Part shown: in pieces, positions 29,642 to 53,908 of the stretch
How the letters are laid out: each line of letters starts with the position of its first letter
Position numbering within the stretch: the stretch's first letter is position 1
NCBI GenBank assembly: GCA_964655915.1
Contig: CAZZNV010000001.1
Coordinates: 102,250-166,249, forward strand
Length of the DNA stretch: 64,000 nt
Origin: an uncultured Azospirillaceae bacterium
GTDB taxonomy: Bacteria; Pseudomonadota; Alphaproteobacteria; RF32; CAG-239
Direction of reading: 5' to 3'
Made by a program: the position numbers and the translations under genes
The notes under the pieces: model-generated
What the model saw: the letters and a program-made list of their open reading frames with translations, nothing else
Database searches by the model: none
What the model was told of the DNA's origin: nothing

Positions 29642-29905
29642 ATGGCCAATCATAAATCGGCAAAAAATAGAATTATAAGAAACGACAAACGCAACGTTAT
29701 CAACGCTGCTCGCAGAAATCGTGTTCGCACTTTTGTAAAAAAGGTTGATGCTTTGATTAGTGCCGGCAACAAAGAAGCTGCCGCAGAGGCTTTCAAAGTT
29801 GCAGAATCTGAAATGATGTCTGCTGCCCGTAAAGGTATTTTCGCATTGAACAAAGCTTCTCGCACTGTTTCTCGCTTGTCAAAAAAGATTAAAGCTTTAG
29901 CCTAA
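29642..29905 (+). CDS. rpsT: 30S ribosomal protein S20
   Basis: 87 aa, MANHKSAKNRIIRNDKRNVINAARRNRVRTF…. Confidence 0.95.
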   Translation: MANHKSAKNRIIRNDKRNVINAARRNRVRTFVKKVDALISAGNKEAAAEAFKVAESEMMSAARKGIFALNKASRTVSRLSKKIKALA

Positions 29906-30137
29906 AAAACGGCTTAAAGTTTCTTTTTTTCAAAACACAAATTCTTTCGCCCTTTTTATTTATAAGGGTGTTTGGGTTTGTGTTTTTTTGTTGGGAAAAC
30001 AAGAGAATCTAAGCGACTCTGTAAAAAAGCTTTGTCAAGAAATTTAATTACAATGTTCTTGAAATGTTCTGTTGTATTTTTGTTTTTGTACCGTTACTAT
30101 CCGAATCACTTTCTGAGGGGTTGCCTAAAATTTAACG

Positions 30138-30217
30138 GGTGATTATCAGAGTGTTTGGTTGATAGACCAGCCGGTAATTATCAGAATGTTTGATTGGTAA
30201 ATTGTTGAAACATTCAG
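30138..30217. repeat. Two 29-bp direct repeats at a 35-bp period, each with a DnaA-box-like core (TTATCAGAG / TTATCAGAA). Plus an adjacent 10-bp inverted repeat and three TTGATAG copies in the dnaA upstream region.
   Basis: Unit 1 is GGTGATTATCAGAGTGTTTGGTTGATAGA (~30138-30166). Unit 2 is GGTAATTATCAGAATGTTTGATTGGTAAA (~30173-30201), with 24/29 identity and all mismatches G<->A. The inverted repeat is CAGAATGTTT/AAACATTCAG (~30182-30217). Confidence 0.45.
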
Positions 30218-30575
30218 TTGGTAAAACGGTTGGAGTTGGCTGATAAGACAGTCGGCAACGGCCAGATATTCGATTGATAGGAAAGCGTGATGAAACGCAA
30301 CTTCTCTTTAAGCGGCTTAACTGAGGCCTCCGCAGTTTATTGGGGAACGGTTTTGTTGATAGACATTTACTGTTTGATGTTGCGGAAGGTTTTCTGAAAA
30401 AGTTGTGGGGACAATTTTTTTGGGAAAAAGGTAAGCCTTTGATTTGGAAGGTTAACGCCGGAAGAATCGGATTGTCTGACATTTGACGAATTGTTCGCCG
30501 GAACAGGCTTTGGGCTTTAGTCGACCGAACAGGACGGATAATTAAGAGAACGGCAAGCTTGATTGCCTTATAATT

Positions 30576-32054
30576 TTGAATGTTTTTGGATTTAATTTAT
30601 TTGATTGGGGAGCGGAAATGGCTGAAGAAGCAATAAGTAATAACACTGTTCAAGACCAATGGGGACAAATTTGCAGCCAATTGAAAAACGAGGTTGGAGA
30701 AACCGCTTTTGAAAGCTGGTTAAAACCTCTGACTTTAGGAACTTTTAACGACGGCGTTATGAATATCTGTGTTCCGACACGCTTCATGAGAAACTGGGTC
30801 ATCACTCATTACAGCGACCGCATCCACAAAATTTGGGAAAAGAAAAATCCGGCGATAAAGAACGTTAACTTCATTGTTCAAGCTGTTCAAGAAGAGGCTC
30901 ACGGTCTTTACAATCCGACATGCCGTTCGTTATTGAAAAAAATATCGTCGACTCCAGTTCCTCAAAATATTTACCAATCAGGATCTTCTGCCTTTGTGGC
31001 CAACAGCAACAATGGCGTTATGAACGACACTTTATCTGTTCCTCTTAACCCGCAATACACGTTTGACAATTTTGTTGTCGGGAAAACAAATGAGTTTGCT
31101 TATGCGGCAGCTCGCAAGGTTGCCGAATCTCGCAATGTTTCTTTTAATCCTCTGTTTCTTTATTCAGGTGTCGGATTGGGGAAAACCCACCTGATGCACG
31201 CCATTGCATGGCACATCAAACAGCAGGATCCGAGCCGCAACATTGTTTATTTGTCTGCTGAAAAGTTTATGTATAAGTTTGTTCGCGCTTTGCGTTACAA
31301 AGACACGACAGCTTTCAAAGAGCAATTCCGTTCCGTTGACGTGTTGATGGTTGATGATGTTCAATTCATGGGCGGGAAAGACAACACCCAAGAGGAATTT
31401 TTCTATACCTTTAACTCCTTAATTGAAGAAGGCCGCCAGATTATTATCTCAGCCGATAAATCTCCTGCTGATTTGGAGGGCATTGAAGCCCGTCTGAAAT
31501 CACGCTTGGGCTGCGGACTGGTTGCCGATATTCACCCGACAGATTTTGACTTAAGAATGGGGATTCTTAACAACAAAGCACAACAGCTCGGTATTGAATT
31601 GCCAACCAAGGTTGCCGAATTCTTGGCTCAGAAAATTACATCTAATATTCGTGAGTTGGAAGGGGCTTTGCGTCGTGTTATTGCTCACTCTCAATTATTG
31701 TCCGACAAAGAGATTACGCTGGACATGACCCAAGATGTCTTGAAGGATATGTTGCGTTCTTACGACAAACGCACAACAATTGATGAAATTCAAAAGAAAG
31801 TTGCAGAACACTTCAATATATCGGTTAAAGAAATGCAATCTTCTCGCAGAGCTCGCACAGTTGCCAGACCTCGCCAGATTGCAATGTATTTGGCAAAGCA
31901 ATTGACTTCTCGCTCATTACCGGAAATCGGACGCAAGTTTGATCGTGATCACACAACAGTTATGCATGCCGTTCGTAAAGTAGAGGAGTTGATTCTTGAG
32001 GATTCCTCTTTAGCTGAGAGCATTGATACTCTGAGAAGGGCTTTAGACGCCTAA
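30576..32054 (+). CDS. dnaA: Chromosomal replication initiator DnaA; likely true start at internal ATG ~42 nt downstream (MAEEAISNN…)
   Basis: AAA+ Walker A GVGLGKTHL, Walker B/sensor motifs and a C-terminal DnaA-box-binding domain (…HTTVMHAVRKVEEL…). A GGGGAGCGG SD precedes the internal ATG. Confidence 0.95.
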   Translation: MNVFGFNLFDWGAEMAEEAISNNTVQDQWGQICSQLKNEVGETAFESWLKPLTLGTFNDGVMNICVPTRFMRNWVITHYSDRIHKIWEKKNPAIKNVNFIVQAVQEEAHGLYNPTCRSLLKKISSTPVPQNIYQSGSSAFVANSNNGVMNDTLSVPLNPQYTFDNFVVGKTNEFAYAAARKVAESRNVSFNPLFLYSGVGLGKTHLMHAIAWHIKQQDPSRNIVYLSAEKFMYKFVRALRYKDTTAFKEQFRSVDVLMVDDVQFMGGKDNTQEEFFYTFNSLIEEGRQIIISADKSPADLEGIEARLKSRLGCGLVADIHPTDFDLRMGILNNKAQQLGIELPTKVAEFLAQKITSNIRELEGALRRVIAHSQLLSDKEITLDMTQDVLKDMLRSYDKRTTIDEIQKKVAEHFNISVKEMQSSRRARTVARPRQIAMYLAKQLTSRSLPEIGRKFDRDHTTVMHAVRKVEELILEDSSLAESIDTLRRALDA

Positions 32055-32076
32055 AATACGGTTTTCTCGCATCTCT

Positions 32077-32110
32077 GGAAGCAGCCTTAGAAAACAAGGC
32101 TGCTTTTTTG
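32077..32110 (+). terminator. Rho-independent terminator after dnaA
   Basis: GGAAGCAGCCTT-AGAAAAC-AAGGCTGCTT followed by TTTTTG. Confidence 0.6.
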
Positions 32111-32167
32111 TGCAAAGGCGCAAAAAATTGTTGAAGAATAGAGCTTTCACCTTTTGATTTGCACTGA

Positions 32168-33343
32168 TTGTGCTACTATGGTCTCAGAAAAAGCTTTTTT
32201 ATACTTAAATTAGGTGATGATACAATGAAATTTACTATTGAGCGCGCAAATTTATTAAAAACTCTCAGCCATGTTCAGAGCATTGTTGAGAAGAGAAATA
32301 CAATTCCTGTATTGTCTAATGTTAAAATTGAGGCTTTGGGTGACGGCATCAGTTTTAAAGCGACGGATATGGACACTGAAATTACAGAGATTGTTGATGC
32401 AAAAATCGCAGAGACGGGTGCAACGACTGCTCCTGCGCATATGTTTTATGATATTGTCCGCAAACTTTCCGACGGTGCACAGGTTGAGATTACTTTTCCC
32501 GATGAAAAAGGGCAATTGACGATTGCCTCCGGACGTTCAAAATTCTCTTTATCCACTATCGGTGTTGAAGATTTTCCGGTTATCTCAGGTGATAAACTCC
32601 CGACGTCTTTTGTTATGCCAAAAGATGAATTGAAAGATGTTATTGACCGGACACAATTTGCCGTATCTACGGAAGAGACTCGTTATTATCTGAACGGCCT
32701 TTATGTTCATGCCAAGAAAGAAGGAGCTTCTAATGTTTTGCGCGTGGTAGCCACAGACGGCCATCGGTTGGCTTGCGTTGAAACACCTTTACCGCAAGGT
32801 GCAGAGAATATGTCCGGCGTTATCATTCCCAGAAAAACGGTTTCGGAAATTCGCAAACTTTTAGATGACACCGGTGTTGAGAATGTAATGGTGGAATTTT
32901 CCGAAAACAAAGTTCGCTTTACAATGGAAGATATTACGTTGACATCTAAACTGATTGACGGAACATATCCGGATTACGAAAGAGTTATTCCGACAGACAA
33001 TGACAAGAATCTTGAGTTAAATGTTAAAGCTTTAGCCTCTGCCGTTGATCGTGTTTCAGTTGTTGCAGAACGGACTCGCGCCATTAAAATGCTCACTCAC
33101 GAGAATCGGGTTACGATTACGACATCCAGCCCCGATTTAGGCAGCGCTTCAGAAGATTTGGAAGCTGTTTATGAGAACGAATCTCTGGAAATCGGTTACA
33201 ACTTCCGTTACTTGCTGGATATTTTATCAGAAGTTAAAGGTGACAGCGTCAGAATTTCGTTCTCAGATGCCTCATCCCCTTCGGTTATTCATGATACATC
33301 TGATTCCAGTGCTATTTATGTTTTGATGCCGATGAGGGTATAA
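32168..33343 (+). CDS. dnaN: DNA polymerase III beta sliding clamp; likely start ATG ~32225 (MKFTIERANLLKTL)
   Basis: Canonical DnaN N-terminus and three-domain length (372 aa from the internal start). Confidence 0.95.
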   Translation: MCYYGLRKSFFILKLGDDTMKFTIERANLLKTLSHVQSIVEKRNTIPVLSNVKIEALGDGISFKATDMDTEITEIVDAKIAETGATTAPAHMFYDIVRKLSDGAQVEITFPDEKGQLTIASGRSKFSLSTIGVEDFPVISGDKLPTSFVMPKDELKDVIDRTQFAVSTEETRYYLNGLYVHAKKEGASNVLRVVATDGHRLACVETPLPQGAENMSGVIIPRKTVSEIRKLLDDTGVENVMVEFSENKVRFTMEDITLTSKLIDGTYPDYERVIPTDNDKNLELNVKALASAVDRVSVVAERTRAIKMLTHENRVTITTSSPDLGSASEDLEAVYENESLEIGYNFRYLLDILSEVKGDSVRISFSDASSPSVIHDTSDSSAIYVLMPMRV

Positions 33344-33353
33344 CAGATAAGAA

Positions 33354-34586
33354 ATGAGCGACAATCTGGCTTATAATTTATCCGATTTTTCTTCGTTAAA
33401 GTCAGGCGTTACACGTCTGACTTTAACTGACTTTAGGAATTATCAGTTTTTACGCATAGAAGCTGACTTAGAGCCTGTTGTTATTTATGGTGAAAACGGA
33501 AGCGGAAAAACAAATATCTTGGAAGCTATTTCGTTTTTGACTCCGGGGAGAGGGCTGCGTGGCGCTAAGCTGTCTGACATAAAAAGAATCACCCCTCAAA
33601 ACTTTAATGATGAATATCGTCCAACCGCTATAAATCCTTTCAGCTGGGCTGTTTCCACAGAAGTTTGTTGCAACGGAGATTATATAAACATAGCTACTGC
33701 CGTTGAAAGATCGTCACGAGAAATCGAAGAAGATGATGGGACTCGCTCTTTTGAAAGGCGGATTGTTAAGATAGACGGCAACAAAATTTCTTCTCAGGGC
33801 GAACTTGGAAAATATATTTCCGCTATTTGGCTTACTCCGCAGATGGACAGAATGTTTCGCGGCGGCGCTCAACCCAGACGCAGTTTCTTAGACCGATTGG
33901 TTTTTGCCTTTGATACGGAACATGCCAAGAGAACTGCAAACTTTGAACATTTGTACAAAGAATGGTATCGTTTGCTGAAAGAAGGAAAAAACGACCCTCA
34001 CTGGCTTTCCGGATTGGAGGAAAACATGGCGGCCATCGGCGTGGCGATTGCCGCGGCCAGACGTGAACAAATTGCCCGATTGAACACTTTTATCGAGCAT
34101 GAACCTGACGATGTTTTCCCTTCTGTTCGTTTGGAATTAGACGGCTTGGTTGAAAAGTGGCTGGATACAATGCCGGCTATTGAAGCGGAAGACAGATACC
34201 GCAGTTTGTTGCACAACCAGCGTAAGCGAGTGCTGTATAACGACTCGGTGGATGGAGTTAATCGTACAGATTTCAAAGTTTTTTATAAAAAGAAAGGCAT
34301 GCCTGCCGAGCTATGTTCAACCGGAGAACAAAAATCTTTACTTATCAGCGTTATTTTAGCGCAAAGCAAATGTCAGACACTGCACAAAGGATTTGCTCCG
34401 GTTTTGTTGCTTGATGAAGTTGTGGCACACTTAGACGAACTGAAAAGAGAGGCTTTGCTCGAAAAAATTTGTAATCTTGGCGCTCAGGCGTGGATTACTT
34501 CGACTGATGAGGATTTGTTTGCCAGTTTGCGAGGTTATGCGCAATTTTGGGAAGTGAAGAACAACACCGTGACATCTCGTTCATGA
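33354..34586 (+). CDS. recF: DNA replication and repair protein RecF
   Basis: 410 aa with Walker A GENGSGKTNILEAI, an SMC-like signature, and Walker B/D-loop LLLDEVVAHLD. It starts 11 nt after dnaN. Confidence 0.9.
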   Translation: MSDNLAYNLSDFSSLKSGVTRLTLTDFRNYQFLRIEADLEPVVIYGENGSGKTNILEAISFLTPGRGLRGAKLSDIKRITPQNFNDEYRPTAINPFSWAVSTEVCCNGDYINIATAVERSSREIEEDDGTRSFERRIVKIDGNKISSQGELGKYISAIWLTPQMDRMFRGGAQPRRSFLDRLVFAFDTEHAKRTANFEHLYKEWYRLLKEGKNDPHWLSGLEENMAAIGVAIAAARREQIARLNTFIEHEPDDVFPSVRLELDGLVEKWLDTMPAIEAEDRYRSLLHNQRKRVLYNDSVDGVNRTDFKVFYKKKGMPAELCSTGEQKSLLISVILAQSKCQTLHKGFAPVLLLDEVVAHLDELKREALLEKICNLGAQAWITSTDEDLFASLRGYAQFWEVKNNTVTSRS

Positions 34587-37708: not shown

Positions 37709-38629
37709 ATGAAAGGAAAAGCGCCCCGAAACAAAACCATTGAACTGACAGCAACAGAGACACGACGTTATGTTTCGGAAGCTGTTAGGCTGGGGCGAAA
37801 GGTTGACTTATCTGAAGTATTAAACAAAGTCATTTGCCAAGACAGCTTTAAAGCCATGGAATATCTCCCTGACGGCTGCGTTGATTTGATGATTGCCGAC
37901 CCGCCTTATAATCTAACAAAAAATTTTGGAAAATCCGTTTTTAAGGAGATGGATCTTCAATCTTATAAAGAATGGTTGGATAGTTGGCTTTCCAAGACCG
38001 TGCGTCTGTTAAAAGACAATGCCTCTGTTTATATTTGCTCTGACTGGAAAACCTCTATTGCCATTCCTGAGATTGCCGGACGATATTTTTTACTGCAAAA
38101 CCGTATCTCTTGGGAAAGGGAAAAAGGAAGAGGCGCTCAAAATAACTGGAAAAACTGTTTGGAAGATATTTGGTTTTTTACAAAGGGCAAGGACTACACT
38201 TTTAATTTAGACGCCGTTAAAATTCAAAGACCTGTTTTGGCTCCTTATCGTGATGAATGCGGCGCGCCTAAAGATTGGAAACAAAGCGGTAAACAAAAAT
38301 TTCGTTTAACACACCCTTCCAATGTATGGACGGATATTTCCGTGCCTTTTTGGTCAATGCCCGAAAACACGCCGCACCCGACACAAAAGCCCGAAAAACT
38401 TATTGCTAAATTGATTTTGGCTTCCAGCAACGAAAACGATGTTGTGTTTGACCCCTTTTTGGGCTCCGGAACCACCGCTGTTACGGCTAAAAAACTTATG
38501 CGACGATTTATTGGTATAGAAAGAGAAAAAGAATATGTTGCTTTAGCTCTTAAACGATTGTATCTCGCTGATACGGATAAGGAGATTCAAGGTTTCTCCG
38601 ACGGCGTTTTCAAAACCCGTAATAATTAA
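37709..38629 (+). CDS. Beta-class N6-adenine (N6/N4) DNA methyltransferase, CcrM/M.HinfI-like but lacking the CcrM C-terminal domain; no restriction partner
   Basis: 306 aa with motif IV DLMIADPPYNL near the N-terminus and motif I VFDPFLGSGTT near the C-terminus. The …HPTQKPEKLIAKLI… and …FIGIEREKEY… blocks closely resemble CcrM. It starts 5 nt after the HPr stop. Confidence 0.85.
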   Translation: MKGKAPRNKTIELTATETRRYVSEAVRLGRKVDLSEVLNKVICQDSFKAMEYLPDGCVDLMIADPPYNLTKNFGKSVFKEMDLQSYKEWLDSWLSKTVRLLKDNASVYICSDWKTSIAIPEIAGRYFLLQNRISWEREKGRGAQNNWKNCLEDIWFFTKGKDYTFNLDAVKIQRPVLAPYRDECGAPKDWKQSGKQKFRLTHPSNVWTDISVPFWSMPENTPHPTQKPEKLIAKLILASSNENDVVFDPFLGSGTTAVTAKKLMRRFIGIEREKEYVALALKRLYLADTDKEIQGFSDGVFKTRNN

Positions 38630-39670: not shown

Positions 39671-40477
39671 ATGGATTTTTTTAAACTAACTACTTGGAAT
39701 GTAAACTCCGTTCGTATCCGCTTGGAATTACTGAAAAAGCTTGTTGCAGAAGTTTCTCCGGACATTGTCTGCTTGCAGGAAGTGAAAGCTAAAGAAGATG
39801 ACTTTCCTTTTGAGGCCGTGAAAGAGCTCGGATTTCCATATATTGCCCTTTACGGACAGCCTTCTTACAACGGGGTGGCTATCTTATCTAAATTTCTGCT
39901 TAAAGATATTAAACCGCATGATTGGGTCGGCAAACACGATGCCAGACATATCTCAGCAAAGATTTTTGATGATATTGAAATTAATGATATGTATATTCCC
40001 GCCGGAGGGGATATTCCCGATCCGATAGAGAATCTTTCTTTTGCTCACAAATTATGTTTTATGGACGATGTTGCCGAACATTTTGAGCAACACAAAGAGG
40101 CTTTGGTGAAAAAGAAAATGTTGCTTTGCGGCGATTTTAATGTAGCTCCTTCCGAAAATGATGTTTGGAATCATAAGCAGCTACTTAAAATTGTTTCACA
40201 CACTCCCATTGAGATCAGCCGCCTAAATCGCCTGTTTTCTTCATTAGATTTTGTAGATGCGGTTCGTAAAATATATCCGGAACCGGAGAAGATGTTTTCT
40301 TGGTGGAGCTATCGCAACCCCAACTGGGCAACAAACAACAAAGGACGGCGGTTGGATCATATTTGGGTGACGCCACCTTTGGAATCACGCATTTTAGATG
40401 TGCAGATATTGAAAGAAGCTCGCCTTTGGGAGCGCCCTTCCGACCACGTTCCCGTGACGGCAACGATTAAACTTTAA
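39671..40477 (+). CDS. xthA: Exodeoxyribonuclease III (AP endonuclease)
   Basis: 268 aa, …TWNVNSVRIR…VCLQEVKA…, EEP fold, Xth length. Confidence 0.9.
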   Translation: MDFFKLTTWNVNSVRIRLELLKKLVAEVSPDIVCLQEVKAKEDDFPFEAVKELGFPYIALYGQPSYNGVAILSKFLLKDIKPHDWVGKHDARHISAKIFDDIEINDMYIPAGGDIPDPIENLSFAHKLCFMDDVAEHFEQHKEALVKKKMLLCGDFNVAPSENDVWNHKQLLKIVSHTPIEISRLNRLFSSLDFVDAVRKIYPEPEKMFSWWSYRNPNWATNNKGRRLDHIWVTPPLESRILDVQILKEARLWERPSDHVPVTATIKL

Positions 40478-41087
40478 GCTTGTAGCCTCCTTCAAGAGTT
40501 ATGATAAGCTGAGCCGATGAGTCATCGTGCTCAACTTTTTGTCGCAGTCGATAAATGTGCGTTTCTATTGTGTGGGTTGTTGCATCCGGAGCATAACCCC
40601 AAACTTCTTGCAACAACTCATTTTTTGAAACAACTCTTTCGTTTGCTTTAAAAAGATATTTGATAACGGCAACTTCTTTTTCCGTCAGTTTTATCACTTC
40701 ATTATTTCGGTGATTGATAATATCTTTCTTGATTGGACGAACCTCATAATCGTTAAAAGACAAATAACCGTCCGTACTGTTTTCAAAAAGATTTAAGCAG
40801 GCATGCAACTCATCTAAAAATGTCGTTAATTTCATGGGTTTGAAAATTAGATGGTTTGCAGAGCAACTCGAAAGATCGGTCACAGATGTAAATAAGAAAG
40901 AAGGAATATTCTCATATTTTTTTTGCCATGCTTTTAGAACAGACAAATCATCATCAACCATTAAAATATCCGGCACAACCCCGTCTTCCTGATAGAAAAC
41001 CTCAAACTCTTTGGCGTATTGCGCTATCTGGCTAACCAAATCAGATTTAAAATCATCATTGGTTGAGTAAAACAAGATGTTCGGCAT
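40467..41087 (-). CDS. Response regulator, OmpR/PhoB family (short receiver + winged-helix DNA-binding domain), orphan
   Basis: 206 aa with receiver residues (DD, D~47, T/S, K in FKP) and a C-terminal wHTH …THTIETHIYRLRQK…. Confidence 0.7.
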   Translation of the reverse strand: MPNILFYSTNDDFKSDLVSQIAQYAKEFEVFYQEDGVVPDILMVDDDLSVLKAWQKKYENIPSFLFTSVTDLSSCSANHLIFKPMKLTTFLDELHACLNLFENSTDGYLSFNDYEVRPIKKDIINHRNNEVIKLTEKEVAVIKYLFKANERVVSKNELLQEVWGYAPDATTHTIETHIYRLRQKVEHDDSSAQLIITLEGGYKLKV

Positions 41088-44674: not shown

Positions 44675-47182
<2,508 letters not shown>

Positions 47183-47231
47183 TTACCAAGCAAAAAAGCA
47201 TTGTTTTCTGCTGTTTTGGGGATAAAAACGT

Positions 47232-48620
47232 ATGAAATATACGACTCGATTTTTCTTGATGAAAAAGCTTAATTACGATATAATGATTCTATATTCTTTA
47301 TGGGAGGTATTTATGGCTGAATATAAGAAAAAATTTATCTTGAATTTTGAGTCCGGATTAAGTGAACAACATAAAAAATGGGCGAAAGAAGCCGTAAAGG
47401 AATTTATCGCTTTGTTTCCCGAATATGAGGACTGTTTTGAAATCAGTCAGGAAAAAAACAGATTTACAAAAGAACAAGCAGAGGAATTTCTAAACGAAAT
47501 AAGAAGAAAAAATCCGAACGTAACTGATGCTCAGCTTTCTAGCCTTATTGAAAAACAGCCTGACGGTTCATACCTGTATAAATGGGGCGCAGATTATATT
47601 TTTCAAAAATCTTCCACCGACGAAAAACTTGATTTGTTAAAATGGCCCACAGTAGATGAAACACTTCATCCTTCCGGTCAAACCGCCAAAGACCCTCTAA
47701 ATATTTACATATCAAACAGAGAAACCACCTTTGCTTACGGAAGAACATCTGCTGTGGGAAATGTTTGTATTTCCGCTCCGGAAGCTGATAAAATAATGCC
47801 GGAACACAGAGAACGTCATTTTAAGGATATTATTCTTCATGAGATGGGACACCATTTTGGTGCCGTAAACTCTAACAGCCCTAACGCCATTGATGATTTA
47901 GGCTGGCATTCGACAGACCCTGATTGCTTAATGTACCACAAGGCCTACACAAAAGAAGCCTTCCTTAATCGGCATAGTTCTCCTGAAAAACCTTTATTTT
48001 CTCAAGAATGCATGAATAATATGCGCCATAATATGGAGCAGCATCTCGGTTTTACGCAAAAACAACAAAGACCTGCAGACTTGACCATTAGCGATACGGA
48101 AGAAAATCTACCACCGGTTTCTCCTAAACAGGTACCTATTTACAAGAAACACTGGCGGGAATTTGCTCAATCCGTTGCAGAAAAAATTGGCGCAGAATAT
48201 GAAGAAAATACCGAGGTCAACCATTTTAGCGCACAACTCAAAAACAGAGATAATTCTTTTGTTCAAATTGCCGCAACTTCCGAAACGAATGTTTCCCTCA
48301 GTGCAAAAGATAAAAACGGAGAAAAAGCTATTCCTCCGCTGAAAGTATTTAAAGAACTTGCGGCTAAAGCTGCTTCGGAAAACAAGCCTATTTCTTTTGG
48401 CTCTATCCAAGATGCTGAATTTAAAGCACGCCTTTTGATTGCCTGCATGGAAAGCAATCCGCCCGTTAAAATGCAAAACGCTCCGGAAATCAACGAAGAA
48501 TTCTTGGCCGGTCTTGATAAAAACAGCGCTCAAAAGCTTAGAAGCTTACAAAACAAAGAACAAACGGTAGGACAGCCGTTGATTCTTAATCAGCTACCGA
48601 AAAAGCAACGAGATTCTTAA
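47232..48620 (+). CDS. Metzincin-like zinc metalloprotease candidate (HEMGHHFG…H…CLMY), no signal peptide; probable start MAEYKKKF ~47313
   Basis: HExxHxxG zinc-binding motif followed by a Met-turn-like CLMY (…ILHEMGHHFGAVNSNSPNAIDDLGWHSTDPDCLMYH…). A GGGAGG SD precedes ATG ~47313. Confidence 0.55.
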   Translation: MKYTTRFFLMKKLNYDIMILYSLWEVFMAEYKKKFILNFESGLSEQHKKWAKEAVKEFIALFPEYEDCFEISQEKNRFTKEQAEEFLNEIRRKNPNVTDAQLSSLIEKQPDGSYLYKWGADYIFQKSSTDEKLDLLKWPTVDETLHPSGQTAKDPLNIYISNRETTFAYGRTSAVGNVCISAPEADKIMPEHRERHFKDIILHEMGHHFGAVNSNSPNAIDDLGWHSTDPDCLMYHKAYTKEAFLNRHSSPEKPLFSQECMNNMRHNMEQHLGFTQKQQRPADLTISDTEENLPPVSPKQVPIYKKHWREFAQSVAEKIGAEYEENTEVNHFSAQLKNRDNSFVQIAATSETNVSLSAKDKNGEKAIPPLKVFKELAAKAASENKPISFGSIQDAEFKARLLIACMESNPPVKMQNAPEINEEFLAGLDKNSAQKLRSLQNKEQTVGQPLILNQLPKKQRDS

Positions 48621-48930
48621 CTTCTAACTTTGGATTCGTTTTGGATTCGCGCCGAATTTGTTGAAATTCGGCGTTTATTTTAAGGACGAATCCATATTTT
48701 TTTATTTTTCGCAAAGTGAATCTGGACTTGATTTTGGCGCGAATCGGCAGATTGATTCAACAGAATCGGTAATAAAATATTAACTTTTATCTTTTTAGAA
48801 TCCTCTCATAACAGCAATTCTGCAGGTTGTTGTTTGACAAAGCTTTGTTTCTTGATGAAAAATTATTGAGGTTGAAAAGGCATTATTTTTACCGGTTGAG
48901 TTGTCGCAGCCGATGAAAGTAGGATTCGTC
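48612..48930. promoter_or_regulatory. Dense cluster of ~10 GANTC sites (four as GGATTCG/CGAATCC) in a gene-free convergent intergenic region
   Basis: GANTC sites at ~48612, 48633, 48644, 48688, 48718, 48741, 48754, 48763, 48798 and 48923. A TTGACA -35-like hexamer sits at ~48832. Confidence 0.4.
48649..48681 (+). terminator. Rho-independent terminator after the metzincin-like gene
   Basis: CGCCGAATTT-GTTGA-AAATTCGGCG is a 10-bp perfect stem followed by TTTATTTT. Confidence 0.6.
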
Positions 48931-49016
48931 CGGCAAAAGAATTTTGCGCTATGACCAAGCATGGTTGAAACCTCATTCCATATTATCTTTGTGGTTATTA
49001 TGTGAAAAGCTTTATC

Positions 49017-51770
49017 TTAGTGTGCTTCTGCCCAGTTATCTCCTATTCCGGCTTCAGCGATAAAGGGCACTTTGAGTTTTACAATATTTTCCATCGTTTC
49101 TTTGATTAATAACCGAGCTGTTTCCGCCTCGGACTCCGGTGCTTCAAAAACAAGTTCATCGTGAACTTGCAGCAACATACGTGTTTGCATGCCGCGATGC
49201 TTTAATTCATTTTCAATTTTATTCATTGCCAATTTGATAATATCTGCTGCACCGCCCTGAATTGGAGCGTTGATTGCTGCTCGTTCCGCATTAGACACTA
49301 CTCTTTTATTGCTGTCATTAATCCCAAATATGGAACACTTTCGCCCAAAAGGTGTTTCCACATAGCCATGCGCATGAGCAAACTTTATCGTTTCTTCCAT
49401 ATAGGCTTTGATTTCCGGCATTTGCGCAAAATAAGCGTCTATATAGGCCTTTGCCTCTTCGGTACTGACATCTATATTTTTGGACAAGCCATAAGCGGAT
49501 ATGCCGTAAACAATCCCAAAATTAATAGCTTTAGCCTGGCGGCGTAAGTTAGCATCAACCTGTTCCAAGGGAATGCCAAAAACATGAGAAGCTGTTGCCG
49601 CATGGACATCTACGCCATCGGCAAAGGCCTTTTGCAATCTTTTGACATCGGCGACAGAAGCCAATAAACGAAGTTCTACTTGGGAATAATCGCAAGAAAT
49701 TAATTTCCACCCCTGACGAGCAATGAAACAGGCTCTTATCTTTTTGCCCTCTTCACTGCGAATTGGAATATTTTGCAAATTCGGATTATTAGACGCCAAA
49801 CGCCCCGTGTTGGCTACAATTTGTGCGTAGGTTGTGTGAACTCGCTGGTCTTTATCCATTAGAGAAAACAGGGAATCTGTATAGGTTGACCTGAGCTTGC
49901 TAAATTCTCGCCATTCTAAAATTCCTGCCGCCAATTCAACGCCATCTTCCGCTAATTTTTCTAAAACATCAGCTCCTGTCTGCCACGCTCCCGTCGCTGT
50001 CTTTTTGCCTTTTCTGCCTTGTTTGCTGAACAATATTTCCCCGATTTGCTTCGGAGAACCAATGTTAAATTCCTCTCCGGCCAAAGCAAACACTCTTTGC
50101 TCAATCTCGCGCAAACGACTATCAAAATAAGCGCTTAACCCTTTCAGCGCCTCTGCATTCACTTTTATGCCTCTCTTTTCCATTGCTTGCAGTGTCGCAA
50201 TTAACGGGCGGTCAAAATTTTCATAAACGGCAACTTTTTTTTCGCTTAACAATCTGGGTTTCAGAATTTGCCACAGTCGCAAAATATAATCTGCACGCTG
50301 CGCCATATATTCCATCGCCTGTTTGGCATCAACATTTTCAATTGGTGTTTTATTTTTTCCTGAACCGGTGATGTCTTCAAAATGCAGCGGTTTAACATCT
50401 AAGAACTTTACCATTAAATCTTCAACATTATGTCCGTGTTCAGAACTGTCTAAATCATACGACATAACACTGATGTCTTCTATGGGGAAAAACTCGCTTT
50501 GCTCTACCGCTTTACCCAAGAAATGCATAACAGATTTGATATTATGACCTATTTTCAAGATTGACTTATCCGCCAGTAAAGGCTGCAAAAACTTTCCCAC
50601 CTCTTTTGCGGATAAACATGAAGCTGTTTTTAAGGCAAAAAGATCCAAATTTTGCGTTTGACAATCGCTGCCTAAAGGAATGTAACAAGCTTTTCCAGCC
50701 GAACACCCCAAAGACAAACCTATCATGTTATCAAAAACGGGATCGAGTCCTGTTGTCAACACTGCCAGAGAAAAAAATCTTTGTTCTTTTATTTTTTTAA
50801 TCCATTTTTCTAGGGCAGAAGCCGTCTGTACCAGTTCATATTCCGTTTTTACGCCCTCTGATTTAAATACAGCGTTCTTCTCTATAATCTCTGACACTTT
50901 AGAACACCGTTCATACAGCCATTTATCAGCTCTTAAGCGCAACGAACGGAAACCATATTTTTCTATGAAACTCATCAAAATTTCTTCATCAGGCAAGCAA
51001 CATTCAAAATCAGAAATCGCTTTTTCAACGGGAACGTCCGTTTTTAGCGTTACTAATTGCAGTGATATTTTGGCGTTTTCAATATTCTCAAGCAATGCTT
51101 CTCGGCGCTTATTTTGTTTGATTTCTCCGGCATGCGCCAAAACTTCTTCTAAAGAACCATATTCATTTATCAATTGTGCCGCCGTTTTGGGACCAATCCC
51201 CGGCACGCCGGGAACGTTATCTATGCTATCTCCGGACAAGGCTTGAACATCTACAACTTTATCCGGATAAACGCCAAATTTTTCGCGAACATCTTCCGGG
51301 GTGAAAAACTTATCTTTCATGGGATCATAAAGCTCCACCCCCGGACGAATCAGTTGCATGAGGTCTTTATCCCCTGAGACGACAACAACATCTATTCCCT
51401 GTTCTTCTGCCTGTTTGGCATAGGTGGCTATCAGGTCATCAGCTTCATAACCTTCCATTTCCATGTAACTCAGGTTTAGTGCTTTAACCGCCTCGCGAAT
51501 GATAGAAAACTGCGGAATCAAATCCTCCGGCGTTTCTTTGCGAGTTCCTTTATAATCCGGAAAAATATTGTTACGAAAATTTTGACGCTTAGCATCAAAC
51601 AAAACCAGACAATAATCACACGGAATTTGAGTTGTCAGCTTCATAAACATATTAGTGAAGCCGAAAACGGCATTAACCGGTGTTCCTTCAGGAGAAGTTA
51701 GTGGCGGCAAACCGTAAAAAGCCCGAAAAATATAACCGGAGCCATCAATCAAACAAATCTTTTGCGCCAT
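49017..51770 (-). CDS. polA: DNA polymerase I
   Basis: 917 aa with a 5'-3' exonuclease N-terminus (MAQKICLIDGSGYIFRAFY), a 3'-5' exonuclease domain and a polymerase domain. Confidence 0.95.
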   Translation of the reverse strand: MAQKICLIDGSGYIFRAFYGLPPLTSPEGTPVNAVFGFTNMFMKLTTQIPCDYCLVLFDAKRQNFRNNIFPDYKGTRKETPEDLIPQFSIIREAVKALNLSYMEMEGYEADDLIATYAKQAEEQGIDVVVVSGDKDLMQLIRPGVELYDPMKDKFFTPEDVREKFGVYPDKVVDVQALSGDSIDNVPGVPGIGPKTAAQLINEYGSLEEVLAHAGEIKQNKRREALLENIENAKISLQLVTLKTDVPVEKAISDFECCLPDEEILMSFIEKYGFRSLRLRADKWLYERCSKVSEIIEKNAVFKSEGVKTEYELVQTASALEKWIKKIKEQRFFSLAVLTTGLDPVFDNMIGLSLGCSAGKACYIPLGSDCQTQNLDLFALKTASCLSAKEVGKFLQPLLADKSILKIGHNIKSVMHFLGKAVEQSEFFPIEDISVMSYDLDSSEHGHNVEDLMVKFLDVKPLHFEDITGSGKNKTPIENVDAKQAMEYMAQRADYILRLWQILKPRLLSEKKVAVYENFDRPLIATLQAMEKRGIKVNAEALKGLSAYFDSRLREIEQRVFALAGEEFNIGSPKQIGEILFSKQGRKGKKTATGAWQTGADVLEKLAEDGVELAAGILEWREFSKLRSTYTDSLFSLMDKDQRVHTTYAQIVANTGRLASNNPNLQNIPIRSEEGKKIRACFIARQGWKLISCDYSQVELRLLASVADVKRLQKAFADGVDVHAATASHVFGIPLEQVDANLRRQAKAINFGIVYGISAYGLSKNIDVSTEEAKAYIDAYFAQMPEIKAYMEETIKFAHAHGYVETPFGRKCSIFGINDSNKRVVSNAERAAINAPIQGGAADIIKLAMNKIENELKHRGMQTRMLLQVHDELVFEAPESEAETARLLIKETMENIVKLKVPFIAEAGIGDNWAEAH

Positions 51771-51829: not shown

Positions 51830-52030
51830 CTATTCGCCAATAGATAAAAAGAAAGAACGCTCTAAACTGTCAACCGCACACAAATCTGTTTTGTAATTAT
51901 CTTGACTCGTTTCAATATATTCATAAAGAGCCTGATTTACGCAATCTTCAAAGCTTTGTTTCTTTTGTTCTGCCAATATCATGATTTTTTGCCTTAAATC
52001 TTCAGAGATTGCTACGGAAAAACGTCTCAT
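51830..52030 (-). CDS. Ribbon-helix-helix (CopG/ParD/Arc-like) small DNA-binding protein, orphan
   Basis: 66 aa, MRRFSVAISEDLRQKIMILAEQKKQSFEDCVNQALYEYIE has the beta-alpha-alpha RHH pattern. Sits 59 nt upstream of polA on the same strand. Confidence 0.55.
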   Translation of the reverse strand: MRRFSVAISEDLRQKIMILAEQKKQSFEDCVNQALYEYIETSQDNYKTDLCAVDSLERSFFLSIGE

Positions 52031-52117
52031 AAAACCTTCCTTAACTTCTTTATGTTATTGCATAGTTTATTTGTAGAACAGACAGAGACTCCAGACAAGC
52101 GTTAAAAGGGTAAAAAA

Positions 52118-53908
52118 GTGGCTAAAGTTCAGAAAAAAAAGAAAAAATCAAAAAAAAGAGAGTCAAAACAAAGGGTTGTTAAACGGCGGCGACTCTTGAA
52201 ATTATTTGCTTTTCTGGTGATAACTTTGCTGTTATATATCGGATATTGCGCTCTTACTATGCCCAATATTGAAGATGCTGTTTCTCGCACCAGACAACCG
52301 TTTACAACCATTGTCGCAGAAAACGGTAACGAAATCAAAAGTTTTGGAACGGTTTATTCCGAAGTTATTCGATCGGAACAACTCCCGCAGTATGTTGTTG
52401 ACGCCATTGTTTCTACTGAAGACCGGCGTTTTTACAGCCATTTCGGGTTTGATGTTATTTCCTTTACCAGAGCCATGATTGCTAATTTGTGCGCCGGGCG
52501 TTACGCTCAAGGCGGCAGCACCATTACCCAACAAGTTGCAAAAAATTTATTTTTGACAAATCAAAAAAACCTGAAACGTAAAGTTCAAGAATTGTTACTG
52601 GCTTTTTGGCTGGAAAAAAAATTCAGCAAAGAACAGATTTTGACCTTGTATCTAAACAGAGTTTATCTGGGTTCCGGAACATACGGCATTGAAGCTGCCA
52701 GTCAGCGATATTTTCAAAAATCATCTCAAGACATGAATTTGCTTGAAGCCGCCGTTATTGCCGGCATGCTCAAAGCTCCTTCCCGCTATAACCCTATTGC
52801 TTCACAAAAACGAGCCCTTGACAGAGCCTCCGTGGTTCTTAAAACCATGGTGGAAACAAAATCTATTACAAACACTCAAAGAGAAAAGGCTCTTAAAATG
52901 AGGTTGGGACAGGAAAAAAGTTTTACTGTTGAAAATGCCGGATATTTTGCCGACTGGGTCTATAATGATGTTAATTCTTATGTCGGTGAGCGCGGTGATG
53001 ATGTTTATGTCATGACAACACTCGACCAAAACATGCAAGAAGAAGCTGCGAAAATTTTAACTCGCACGCTGACTGAAAACAGAAACAAAAATGTGTCGCA
53101 AGGGGCGATTGTTGTTTTAGACTACGAAGGTGCCGTAAAGGCGATGGTGGGCGGCGCGAATTATTCCAAAAGCCAGTTTAACAGAGCAACGCAAGCTTTA
53201 CGTCAACCAGGCTCCGCTTTTAAGCCTTTTGTATATTTGACGGCTTTACAAAAAGGTTTTTCTCGTGAAGATAAAATTTCGGATACTCCCATTTCCATTA
53301 ACGGGTGGCACCCTGAAAACGCCGATAAAAAATATTACGGTGACGTATCATTGGAATATGCTTTAATAAAATCGTTAAACTTGGCAACCATTCGTCTGGC
53401 GCAGGCTATATCCGGCAATGCTATTATACGAAATGCTCGAAAAATGGGCATCTCCACAACAATTCAAAATACACCTTCTTTGGCTCTCGGAACTTTTGAA
53501 GTCAAAGTTATTGACCTTGCGACGGCTTATGCCTCTCTCGCCAATGGCGGTTTTAGTGTTTGGCCTTATGCCATTAAAGAAATTTACACTCGTGACGGCT
53601 ACCAGATTTATCAACGTGATCGGGCAGAAAAAATGAAAATTTTGGACGATACCTCGGTGTCTGAACTGACAAAAATGCTGACAAACGTTGTTAACTACGG
53701 CACGGGAAAACGCGCACAAATTCCGGGGTTTGCCGCGGGAAAGACCGGAACATCCCAAGATAACAGAGATGCTTGGTTTGTCGGTTTTAATGACAAGTAT
53801 GTTACAGCTGTTTGGCTCGGTAATGACAACAACAGTCCTATGAAAGGCGTTTCAGGCGCAAATCTGCCGGCAGAAATTTGGAGAAAAGTTATGCTTTCCG
53901 GCAAATAA
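52118..53908 (+). CDS. Class A penicillin-binding protein (GT51 transglycosylase + transpeptidase), short PBP1-type
   Basis: GT51 motifs (…EDRRFYSHFGFD…GGSTITQQVAKN…) and transpeptidase SxxK (SAFKPF), SLN and KTGTS. GTG start with an AAAGGG SD. Poly-Lys N-terminal tail. Confidence 0.8.
   Translation: MAKVQKKKKKSKKRESKQRVVKRRRLLKLFAFLVITLLLYIGYCALTMPNIEDAVSRTRQPFTTIVAENGNEIKSFGTVYSEVIRSEQLPQYVVDAIVSTEDRRFYSHFGFDVISFTRAMIANLCAGRYAQGGSTITQQVAKNLFLTNQKNLKRKVQELLLAFWLEKKFSKEQILTLYLNRVYLGSGTYGIEAASQRYFQKSSQDMNLLEAAVIAGMLKAPSRYNPIASQKRALDRASVVLKTMVETKSITNTQREKALKMRLGQEKSFTVENAGYFADWVYNDVNSYVGERGDDVYVMTTLDQNMQEEAAKILTRTLTENRNKNVSQGAIVVLDYEGAVKAMVGGANYSKSQFNRATQALRQPGSAFKPFVYLTALQKGFSREDKISDTPISINGWHPENADKKYYGDVSLEYALIKSLNLATIRLAQAISGNAIIRNARKMGISTTIQNTPSLALGTFEVKVIDLATAYASLANGGFSVWPYAIKEIYTRDGYQIYQRDRAEKMKILDDTSVSELTKMLTNVVNYGTGKRAQIPGFAAGKTGTSQDNRDAWFVGFNDKYVTAVWLGNDNNSPMKGVSGANLPAEIWRKVMLSGK

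Follow-up and report, generated by a model that had tools for sequence, protein, structure and literature searches.

A conserved, GANTC-dense non-coding module near polA and gyrB in uncultured gut Alphaproteobacteria

Introduction

Why should a short spacer that contains no gene be crowded with a single word, GANTC? The question arises in the genome of an uncultured Azospirillaceae bacterium (GTDB CAG-239, Alphaproteobacteria; assembly GCA_964655915.1), of which a stretch of 64,000 nucleotides (contig CAZZNV010000001.1, positions 102,250 to 166,249), hereafter the window, was analyzed; all positions below refer to it. In the spacer between polA and a metzincin-like gene encoding 462 amino acids (aa), an earlier inspection of the letters, called here the sequence-only reading, had noticed a cluster of GANTC sites and had proposed an epigenetically controlled element, a binding array for a factor recognizing CGAATCC, or an unannotated small RNA. 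Cell-cycle control by adenine methylation in Alphaproteobacteria is known almost wholly from Caulobacter and a few cultured relatives, with one to three GANTC sites per regulated promoter. Here we report that the cluster is the form taken in this genome by a non-coding DNA module that is confined to one clade and present in single copy. The GANTC-dense element is apparently new to science, as literature searches did not find a description of an element of such kind.

Results

GANTC sites start at 48612, 48633, 48644, 48688, 48718, 48741, 48754, 48763, 48798 and 48923. Nine of the ten lie inside the spacer (48621-49016, 396 bp), which is gene-free and convergent as had been described, both flanking genes ending in it; the remaining site falls in the last codons of the 462-aa gene. 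The mean over the window is 2.59 sites per kb, or 0.83 expected per 320 bp, and the earlier estimate of about ten sites in some 320 bp where about one was expected is thus accurate. The second-densest 320-bp stretch of the window holds five sites. The Poisson probability of at least ten is 2e-8, or about 4e-6 when corrected for 200 windows. In 300 first-order Markov simulations, whose DNA carries 40% more GANTC overall, no 320-bp window reached ten sites (maximum 9, mean maximum 5.7). Comparison with the intergenic background, a check that the sequence-only reading had called for and that was run within the window, gave the same picture: the spacer has 22.7 GANTC per kb, and no other intergenic gap comes near this density.

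The element recurs in related genomes. In a survey of 80 polA loci from different species (loci are numbered with the prefix L), 5-10 GANTC sites were found right after polA in nine (L002, L073, L007, L010, L011, L014, L026, L019 and L090), with an intervening gene separating the array from polA in L019. Four more loci (L083, L089, L086 and L096) carry the element in other contexts. With the window, this makes 14 copies in all, the other 13 being in species-level sequences from the same uncultured clade of gut Alphaproteobacteria. Relatives of the window's PolA were all metagenome-assembled genomes from the guts of humans, ruminants and other animals, carrying the label Alphaproteobacteria or "Azospirillum sp.". 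A profile of the conserved core, searched with nhmmer, detected exactly one copy per locus and zero elsewhere in about 0.95 Mb of clade DNA, and the element is the sole place in the surveyed polA loci (about 0.7 Mb) with at least six GANTC per 320 bp. Its most conserved part, a 35-bp block, is identical in all ten copies that were found independently of the block; a metagenome scan with this block returned five more distinct true copies, together with nine chance matches in coding DNA. Core identity between the window and the nine polA-linked copies is 62-75%, and 48-57% for L083, L089, L086 and L096. Because the former values stand against only 30-36% identity at polA four-fold sites between the window and its relatives, which amounts to saturation, the alignments indicate that the core is under purifying selection.

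Within the element, GANTC itself is what selection maintains. This conclusion is drawn from the comparison of copies, because GANTC reaches 31 per kb over the 14 copies against a clade background of 1.96 per kb (0.89 Mb), a 16-fold enrichment, and because all four central bases occur and sites turn over between copies. The highest enrichment among other words of the form XYNY'X' is 2.8-fold. Additional GANTC sites are present at non-homologous, unalignable positions past the A/T tract that borders the core. Sites E and G of the alignment are invariant, and most of the 14 copies have B and C. Flanking positions are under weak constraint (43% of sites have C in front and 66% have G or T behind), the extended form YGAKTCK fits 43% of element sites versus 29% of the background, and GACTC and GAGTC sites are enriched as well. 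Inter-site distances peak at about 10, 22-23, 32-34, 43-45 and 55-56 bp, with a best period of 11.25-11.75 bp. GATTC predominates on one strand in the core and GAATC beyond the A/T tract, resulting in a dyad layout. In this DNA, GANTC is mildly depleted, at an observed/expected ratio of 0.77-0.84.

The genomic setting links the element to gyrB. PBP1a, a 66-aa open reading frame (ORF), polA and gyrB form a block that is widely conserved in the clade. Where the element is present, the usual order is polA, element, gyrB promoter and gyrB, and in nine of ten polA-linked loci gyrB or its operon is found downstream of the element. The distance between element and promoter is fixed: in seven copies a sigma-70-like promoter, TTGC[T/A][T/A] (alternatively TTGGTA-N17-TATATT), starts 86-90 bp past site G. 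This distance is kept in different lineages despite unalignable intervening sequence, and in L002 and L073 even though the next gene there is a 265/288-aa ORF ahead of gyrB. The window is rearranged. Its gyrB promoter is still immediately upstream of gyrB, with the 462-aa gene and its terminator lying between promoter and element, and because these intervene the window copy is detached from any protein-coding promoter; it is conserved as well as the other copies despite this detachment.

The element is carried by one polA subclade (the window, L002/L073, L090, L010 and L007/L011/L014/L026) and, outside it, by the distant L019, and in many genomes polA is followed by gyrB after a spacer of about 100-150 bp that has no element. 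In L083 and L089 the element follows the 3' end of recF and is itself followed by the start of an autotransporter gene, in L086 it is upstream of a tRNA, and in L096 it occupies a convergent spacer; genes start on its far side, as seen from the gyrB side, in L083, L089 and L019. A search for RecF homologues gave no further recF-adjacent copies, as all the relatives it yielded (73-84% identity) are arranged as in the window. The polA operon of the clade has a promoter of its own, TTGTCA-CGATTCG-CAAAAT, with a GANTC between -35 and -10, so that a GANTC-in-promoter architecture is in use in this lineage.

The conserved core of about 170 bp is present once in the window (Table 1). On the polA strand its parts follow in the order 12-bp palindrome, CTGCAG hairpin, GGATTCTAA, TTAA-N7-TTAC, CCGATTCC, 35-bp block and A/T tract (about 16 nt long and following site G, with no initiator sites identified next to it); beyond this tract there are usually further GANTC sites. 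The TTAA-N7-TTAC word resembles the CtrA box, TTAA-N7-TTAAC, and its three exceptions among the copies have TTAG or TTGA as the 3' half-site. TAGAAT looks like a -10 box pointing away from gyrB and may have a promoter role. The 12-bp palindrome varies among copies to TCAAAGCTTTGA, a symmetric change of ACAAAGCTTTGT, and different palindromes (AACGGCCGTT, GCATATGC, TTATGAATTCATAA) occupy the same left-end position in other lineages.

Table 1 Coordinates of the element, its parts and neighboring features in the window.
Feature	Position	Strand	Remarks
Whole GANTC cluster	48612..48927	no strand	10 sites in 316 bp
Conserved core, sites B (48798), C (48763), D (48754), E (48741) and G (48718)	48680..48848	- (polA strand)	nhmmer 115 bits, E = 1e-33; alignments
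Most conserved 35-bp block, CGATTC-N4-CAAA-N10-GATTC-N2-TTTG, sites E and G	48712..48746	-	Invariant alignment columns
TTAA-N7-TTAC (+ strand: GTAA-N7-TTAAC)	48769..48783	-	Conserved in 11 of 14 copies
TAGAAT overlapping site B	48796..48801	+	TAGnnT in 14 of 14 copies, also where GANTC is lost (alignment)
Left-end palindromes	48810..48848	no strand	Hairpin around CTGCAG 48810-48834; 12-bp palindrome ACAAAGCTTTGT 48837-48848; modest covariation
A/T tract and site I (GGATTCGTCC), 3' extension	48684..48710	-	Aligns with CGATTCG in L002, L073 and L090
Intrinsic terminator of the 462-aa gene	48631..48694	+	Hairpin -32.8 kcal/mol, z = -5.7; T-run 48697-48710
462-aa metzincin-like gene	47232-48620	+	Zincin motif HEMGHHFG; no Pfam match
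gyrB core promoter (TTGCTTGGTA...TATATT)	47161..47193	-	Relatives: 86-90 bp after site G; window: 1.5 kb away
polA	49017-51770	-	Stop codon borders the spacer
Beta-class adenine methyltransferase	37709-38629	+	Only methyltransferase in the window

Several candidate features of the spacer were discarded. As window-wide motifs, CAAAGCTTTG (14 matches versus 5.8 expected, mildly above chance and unclustered) and TTAA-N7-TTAC (at chance-level frequency) carry no weight, and only their conservation across species counts. A small ORF as the function of the element was likewise set aside: the 55-aa ORF at 48795-48962 (- strand) has no Pfam match, its region is rich in indels among relatives, and no ORF is conserved. 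A perfect 10-nt inverted repeat, GGACGAATCC / GGATTCGTCC (48684-48693 and 48922-48931), flanks the core on both sides in the window; conservation of the outer arm does not extend to L002 or L073. With this repeat unconserved, a single copy in the window and no more than one at each locus within about 0.95 Mb of clade DNA, a dispersed repeat or miniature inverted-repeat transposable element was rejected, as was a mobile, plasmid or phage origin, in view of the lack of extra copies and of matches in PLSDB, a phage collection and viral contigs.

The sequence-only reading had emphasized the 7-mer GGATTCG/CGAATCC. Its count of four in the cluster stands (48632, 48643, 48687 and 48922, with five more in the remainder of the window), whereas the 7-mer is not a conserved unit across species. 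Three of the four are supplied by the arms of the terminator of the 462-aa gene and the tandem TTTGGATTCG pair (48629-48649); the arms also hold three of the ten GANTC sites (48633, 48644 and 48688), and the terminator is confined to the window's lineage. GGATTCG was therefore rejected as the binding unit, and the commonest contexts across species are CGATTC[T/G]. The two GAATCGG words that had been pointed out are at 48741 and 48763. The reported TTGACA hexamer is present (48834-48839) and promoter-like when paired with AAAAAT (10/12), but is not conserved in relatives. Homologues of the metzincin-like protein (30-43% identity) are encoded, inverted, between polA and gyrB in at least 20 species (polA loci L013-L042), and variants of 750-800 aa exist.

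Candidate writers and readers of GANTC were also considered. The claim that the window encodes a CcrM-like methyltransferase is true in a weak sense: the enzyme is a beta-class adenine methyltransferase but not a clear CcrM orthologue. It scores 118 bits against the CcrM model, whose cut-off is 830, and shares 29% identity with a CcrM sequence; among solved structures M.BceJIV (GTWWAC) comes closest, M.MboIIA is likewise among the best matches, and both are nearer to it than CcrM is. The gene is conserved in the clade, lies near the same genes in L083 and L092 and has no obvious restriction partner nearby. A tblastn search with a GcrA N-terminus gave no match in the window or in about 100 loci, which cover a very small part of each genome. 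Encoded at 40467-41087 (- strand) is a 206-aa winged-helix protein of the OmpR/PhoB type, with a match to the DNA-binding domain only and no receiver domain detected.

Discussion

The reading that fits best is that of an array which is read epigenetically or bound by protein. The corresponding proposal of the sequence-only reading survives in part: the cluster is far beyond chance and selected, with GANTC itself as the unit in place of CGAATCC. More specifically, the element is most likely a methylation-read regulatory array of the GcrA/CcrM type, normally placed upstream of gyrB, an identification that we hold tentatively and in which methylation, a reader and an influence on promoters are inferred. 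The array, consisting of 5-10 GANTC sites at spacings of about 11 bp or multiples thereof, with palindrome, TAGnnT and TTAA-N7-TTAC on one side and the A/T tract on the other, would act at the DNA level as a platform that is read via adenine methylation. The mark would be set by a GANTC methyltransferase, the array would become hemimethylated each time the replication fork passes, and a GcrA-type reader of methyl-GANTC, possibly together with a CtrA-like regulator at TTAA-N7-TTAC, would set the activity of the flanking promoters. The main target, ancestrally and usually, would be the gyrB promoter 86-90 bp past site G, and in some genomes also the gene on the other side. The element may be bidirectional, since TAGnnT and GTAA-N7-TTAAC face away from gyrB. 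We favor this reading because the polA-operon promoter contains CGATTCG, because gyrB, gyrA and parC are conserved GcrA/CcrM targets in Caulobacterales, with extended GANTC (YGAKTCK) in their promoters (PMC7987155), and because GANTC is depleted in this DNA, CcrM-bearing Alphaproteobacteria having GANTC under-represented overall and enriched in intergenic DNA (PMC3973325).

Compared with the GcrA/CcrM promoters of Caulobacterales (ctrA P1, ftsZ and mipZ; gyrB, gyrA and parC), the element shares a conserved GANTC upstream of gyrB, a preference for C before and G or T after the site (YGAKTCK-like) and the mild avoidance of GANTC elsewhere. It differs in being a module of 5-10 sites in 170-250 bp, not one to three, in lying 90-250 bp upstream of the start site, and in surviving when detached from any promoter. 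Several of these points weigh against a GcrA/CcrM-type array. GcrA-dependent promoters typically have their site between -35 and +1, and the array, which precedes the gyrB start site by about 90-250 bp, is beyond this interval; an extended YGAKTCK between -35 and +1 was encountered in the polA-operon promoter and not in the element, where site E fits YGAKTCK but is without flanking promoter hexamers. Core sites are mostly GATTC on one strand (48 versus 8), a bias that a palindromic methylation signal does not need. No CcrM, GcrA or CtrA orthologue was demonstrated, the methyltransferase of the window being nearer to M.BceJIV/M.MboIIA. Four copies, including that of the window, have no promoter on their gyrB-facing side and yet are conserved, and close relatives (L004, L005) along with many others have polA and gyrB separated by about 100 bp without the element, so that the array is dispensable for gyrB expression. 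Since orphan copies are conserved and relatives manage without the element, there is room for an autonomous role, for a forward-strand RNA and for an array that works independently of methylation.

An autonomous role would be filled by a dedicated hemimethylation sensor, that is, a phased platform on which a methyl-GANTC reader oligomerizes after fork passage, SeqA-like but made of different parts. Such a sensor might act by sequestration, by control of local topology near gyrB or by control of a short unannotated transcript, and autonomous action would explain the conservation of copies detached from any gene start; we regard it as rather improbable. Independently of this reading, the element has a parallel in the GATC clusters of the E. 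coli oriC and dnaA promoter (Dam/SeqA), which share with it an about ten-fold over-representation of methyltransferase target sites within some 250 bp, helical phasing and nearby replication genes. The element differs in its motif and methyltransferase family and in having no DnaA boxes and no GC-skew mark, and SeqA is not known in Alphaproteobacteria.

That the element is a small RNA gene or a distal leader of gyrB on the polA strand, with the E-G block as functional RNA and the hairpin as a terminator-like end, or alternatively encodes a short opposite-strand RNA from the TAGAAT box, seems unlikely. In L011 a predicted 10/12 promoter (TTGACG-18-TAAAAT) stops 8 bp short of the element, the end of which is marked by a hairpin with a T-run, L019 has a predicted 9/12 promoter ahead of the element, and a hairpin stands just before the A/T tract in every lineage (GCAAA.../...TTTGC or GACTCA/TGAGTC). 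The left-end palindromes vary in sequence while remaining constant in position, two pairs covary, G-U pairs favor the window's + strand, and several copies reside in convergent spacers, where genes need no promoter. Against this, no Rfam 15 family matched in the window at gathering or relaxed thresholds, or overlapped the element in nine relatives at gathering thresholds; the best relaxed match in the window was RAGATH-21 on the terminator hairpin (25 bits versus 70), and the scan of the relatives found tRNAs alone. RNAalifold found next to no consensus folding for the two strands (-3.7 and -1.2 kcal/mol), folding energies have no consistent strand preference, and covariation, sought with RNAalifold, single folds and manual pair counts, was confined to the short CTGCAG hairpin, with one or two events. 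The window, L002 and L073 lack the promoter ahead of the element, the T-run stands 6-14 nt away from the hairpin and gives way to an A-run in the window, and turnover of GANTC with any central base suits a DNA signal better than an RNA signal. The proposal of an unannotated small RNA thus found no positive evidence in the window, where there is no Rfam match, consensus fold or conserved promoter-plus-terminator pair. A DNA signal could also be read without methylation, by a protein that recognizes directional (C)GATTC(G) repeats on one face of the DNA (an iteron-like binder or the OmpR-type winged-helix protein being candidates), or the element could be a recombination or attachment site; we judge this pair of options improbable. 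The strong GATTC strand bias of the core, the GAATC bias beyond the A/T tract and the resulting dyad, the phasing of about 11 bp and the presence in the window of an OmpR-type DNA-binding protein without a receiver-domain match are in keeping with a directional array. An attachment site would account for the variable accessory genes inserted beside the element, which are metzincin-like, 265/288-aa, autotransporter and pilin genes. The pair is at odds with the weakly constrained flanks and the additional enrichment of GACTC and GAGTC, with the finding of one copy per locus and zero elsewhere in about 0.95 Mb of clade DNA, with the absence of a recombinase or integrase adjoining any copy and with the lack of matches in plasmid, phage and viral collections.

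Considerably less probable still is that the element is a chromosomal replication origin, or part of one, comparable to the GATC-rich oriC of E. coli and to Cori of Caulobacter, even though it is single-copy, non-coding and among replication genes (dnaA-dnaN-recF, gyrB and polA), directly follows recF in L083 and L089, and combines a methylation-site cluster with an A/T tract and a CtrA-box-like word. Cori has five GANTC sites and CtrA boxes, and also contains a small RNA gene (PMC6393856). The likeness to the element extends to several GANTC, a TTAA-N7-TTAA-type box and an A/T-rich stretch; the element lacks G- or W-type DnaA boxes and the hemE/duf299 neighborhood and has one box, not five, and the evidence from orientation and skew speaks against an origin. 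DnaA boxes (TTATCCACA, at most one mismatch) occur at 0.33 per kb within 350 bp of the copies versus 0.28 per kb elsewhere, with zero in the window's spacer. A weak strand-corrected GC-skew switch exists within 48-58 kb (permutation p = 0.04 for GC and 0.15 for GC at third codon positions, GC3), but the change of sign, if there is one, fits best at 54-58 kb, not 48.8 kb, and polA and PBP1a are both left-side-like. Across genomes, the GC3 skew of gyrB minus that of polA is -0.16 with the element versus -0.08 without it, opposite to the prediction for an intervening origin; polA, and the dnaA operon in L083 and L089, would run head-on into the origin, and the element is absent from the same syntenic spacer in close relatives.

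An uncultured gut clade keeps a module of up to ten GANTC under strong selection next to gyrB, polA or recF. The element provides a sequence marker with which epigenetic regulation can be traced where organisms cannot yet be grown, and existing gut data can be mined for it at the level of methylomes and metatranscriptomes. Its copies also constitute a natural experiment, as some are attached to gyrB, some to other genes and some, like that of the window, orphaned, and their comparison can separate promoter-linked from autonomous function. Should the element turn out to be a sensor of the sequestration type or an unconventional part of an origin, the SeqA/oriC paradigm of E. coli would be extended to a lineage without SeqA.

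Additional features of the window

Besides gyrB, PBP1a and the methyltransferase, the window encodes fpg, an enoyl-CoA hydratase, rpsT and dnaA-dnaN-recF (30576-34586). The 66-aa ORF (...EDVYKTDLCAVDNLERSFFLSIGE) directly upstream of polA (51830-52030, - strand) has no Pfam match and is kept in every relative examined; its promoter is TTGTCA-CGATTCG-CAAAAT, and the start of PBP1a (52030-52230) contains additional conserved GANTC sites. For gyrB, the mechanically called ORF starts with TTG at 47161, whereas relatives (MSEMT...) place the true start at the ATG at 47119. A DnaA-box-like word, TTATCCCCA, is located at 47217-47225 (- strand), about 30 bp upstream of the gyrB -35, and the same word occurs upstream of gyrB in L010. 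In the metagenome contigs L086 (3042-3353, - strand) and L096 (840-1137, + strand), about 250-300 bp of conserved non-coding DNA with a hairpin, AAAGCTTGCTCCGACAC..GCAAGAGCTTTT, precede the element; this stretch has no Rfam match.

Two other words are strongly avoided over the whole window, CCNGG (observed/expected 0.29) and GGNCC (0.47), which suggests restriction-modification pressure on them. Finally, the 670-bp non-coding interval 29906-30575, between rpsT (29643-29905) and dnaA, contains five same-strand TTG[A/G]TA[A/G] words in 300 bp against 0.34 expected, four GANTC and, at 30140 and 30175, a pair of direct repeats about 30 bp long, and may be a DnaA-related or origin-type array.

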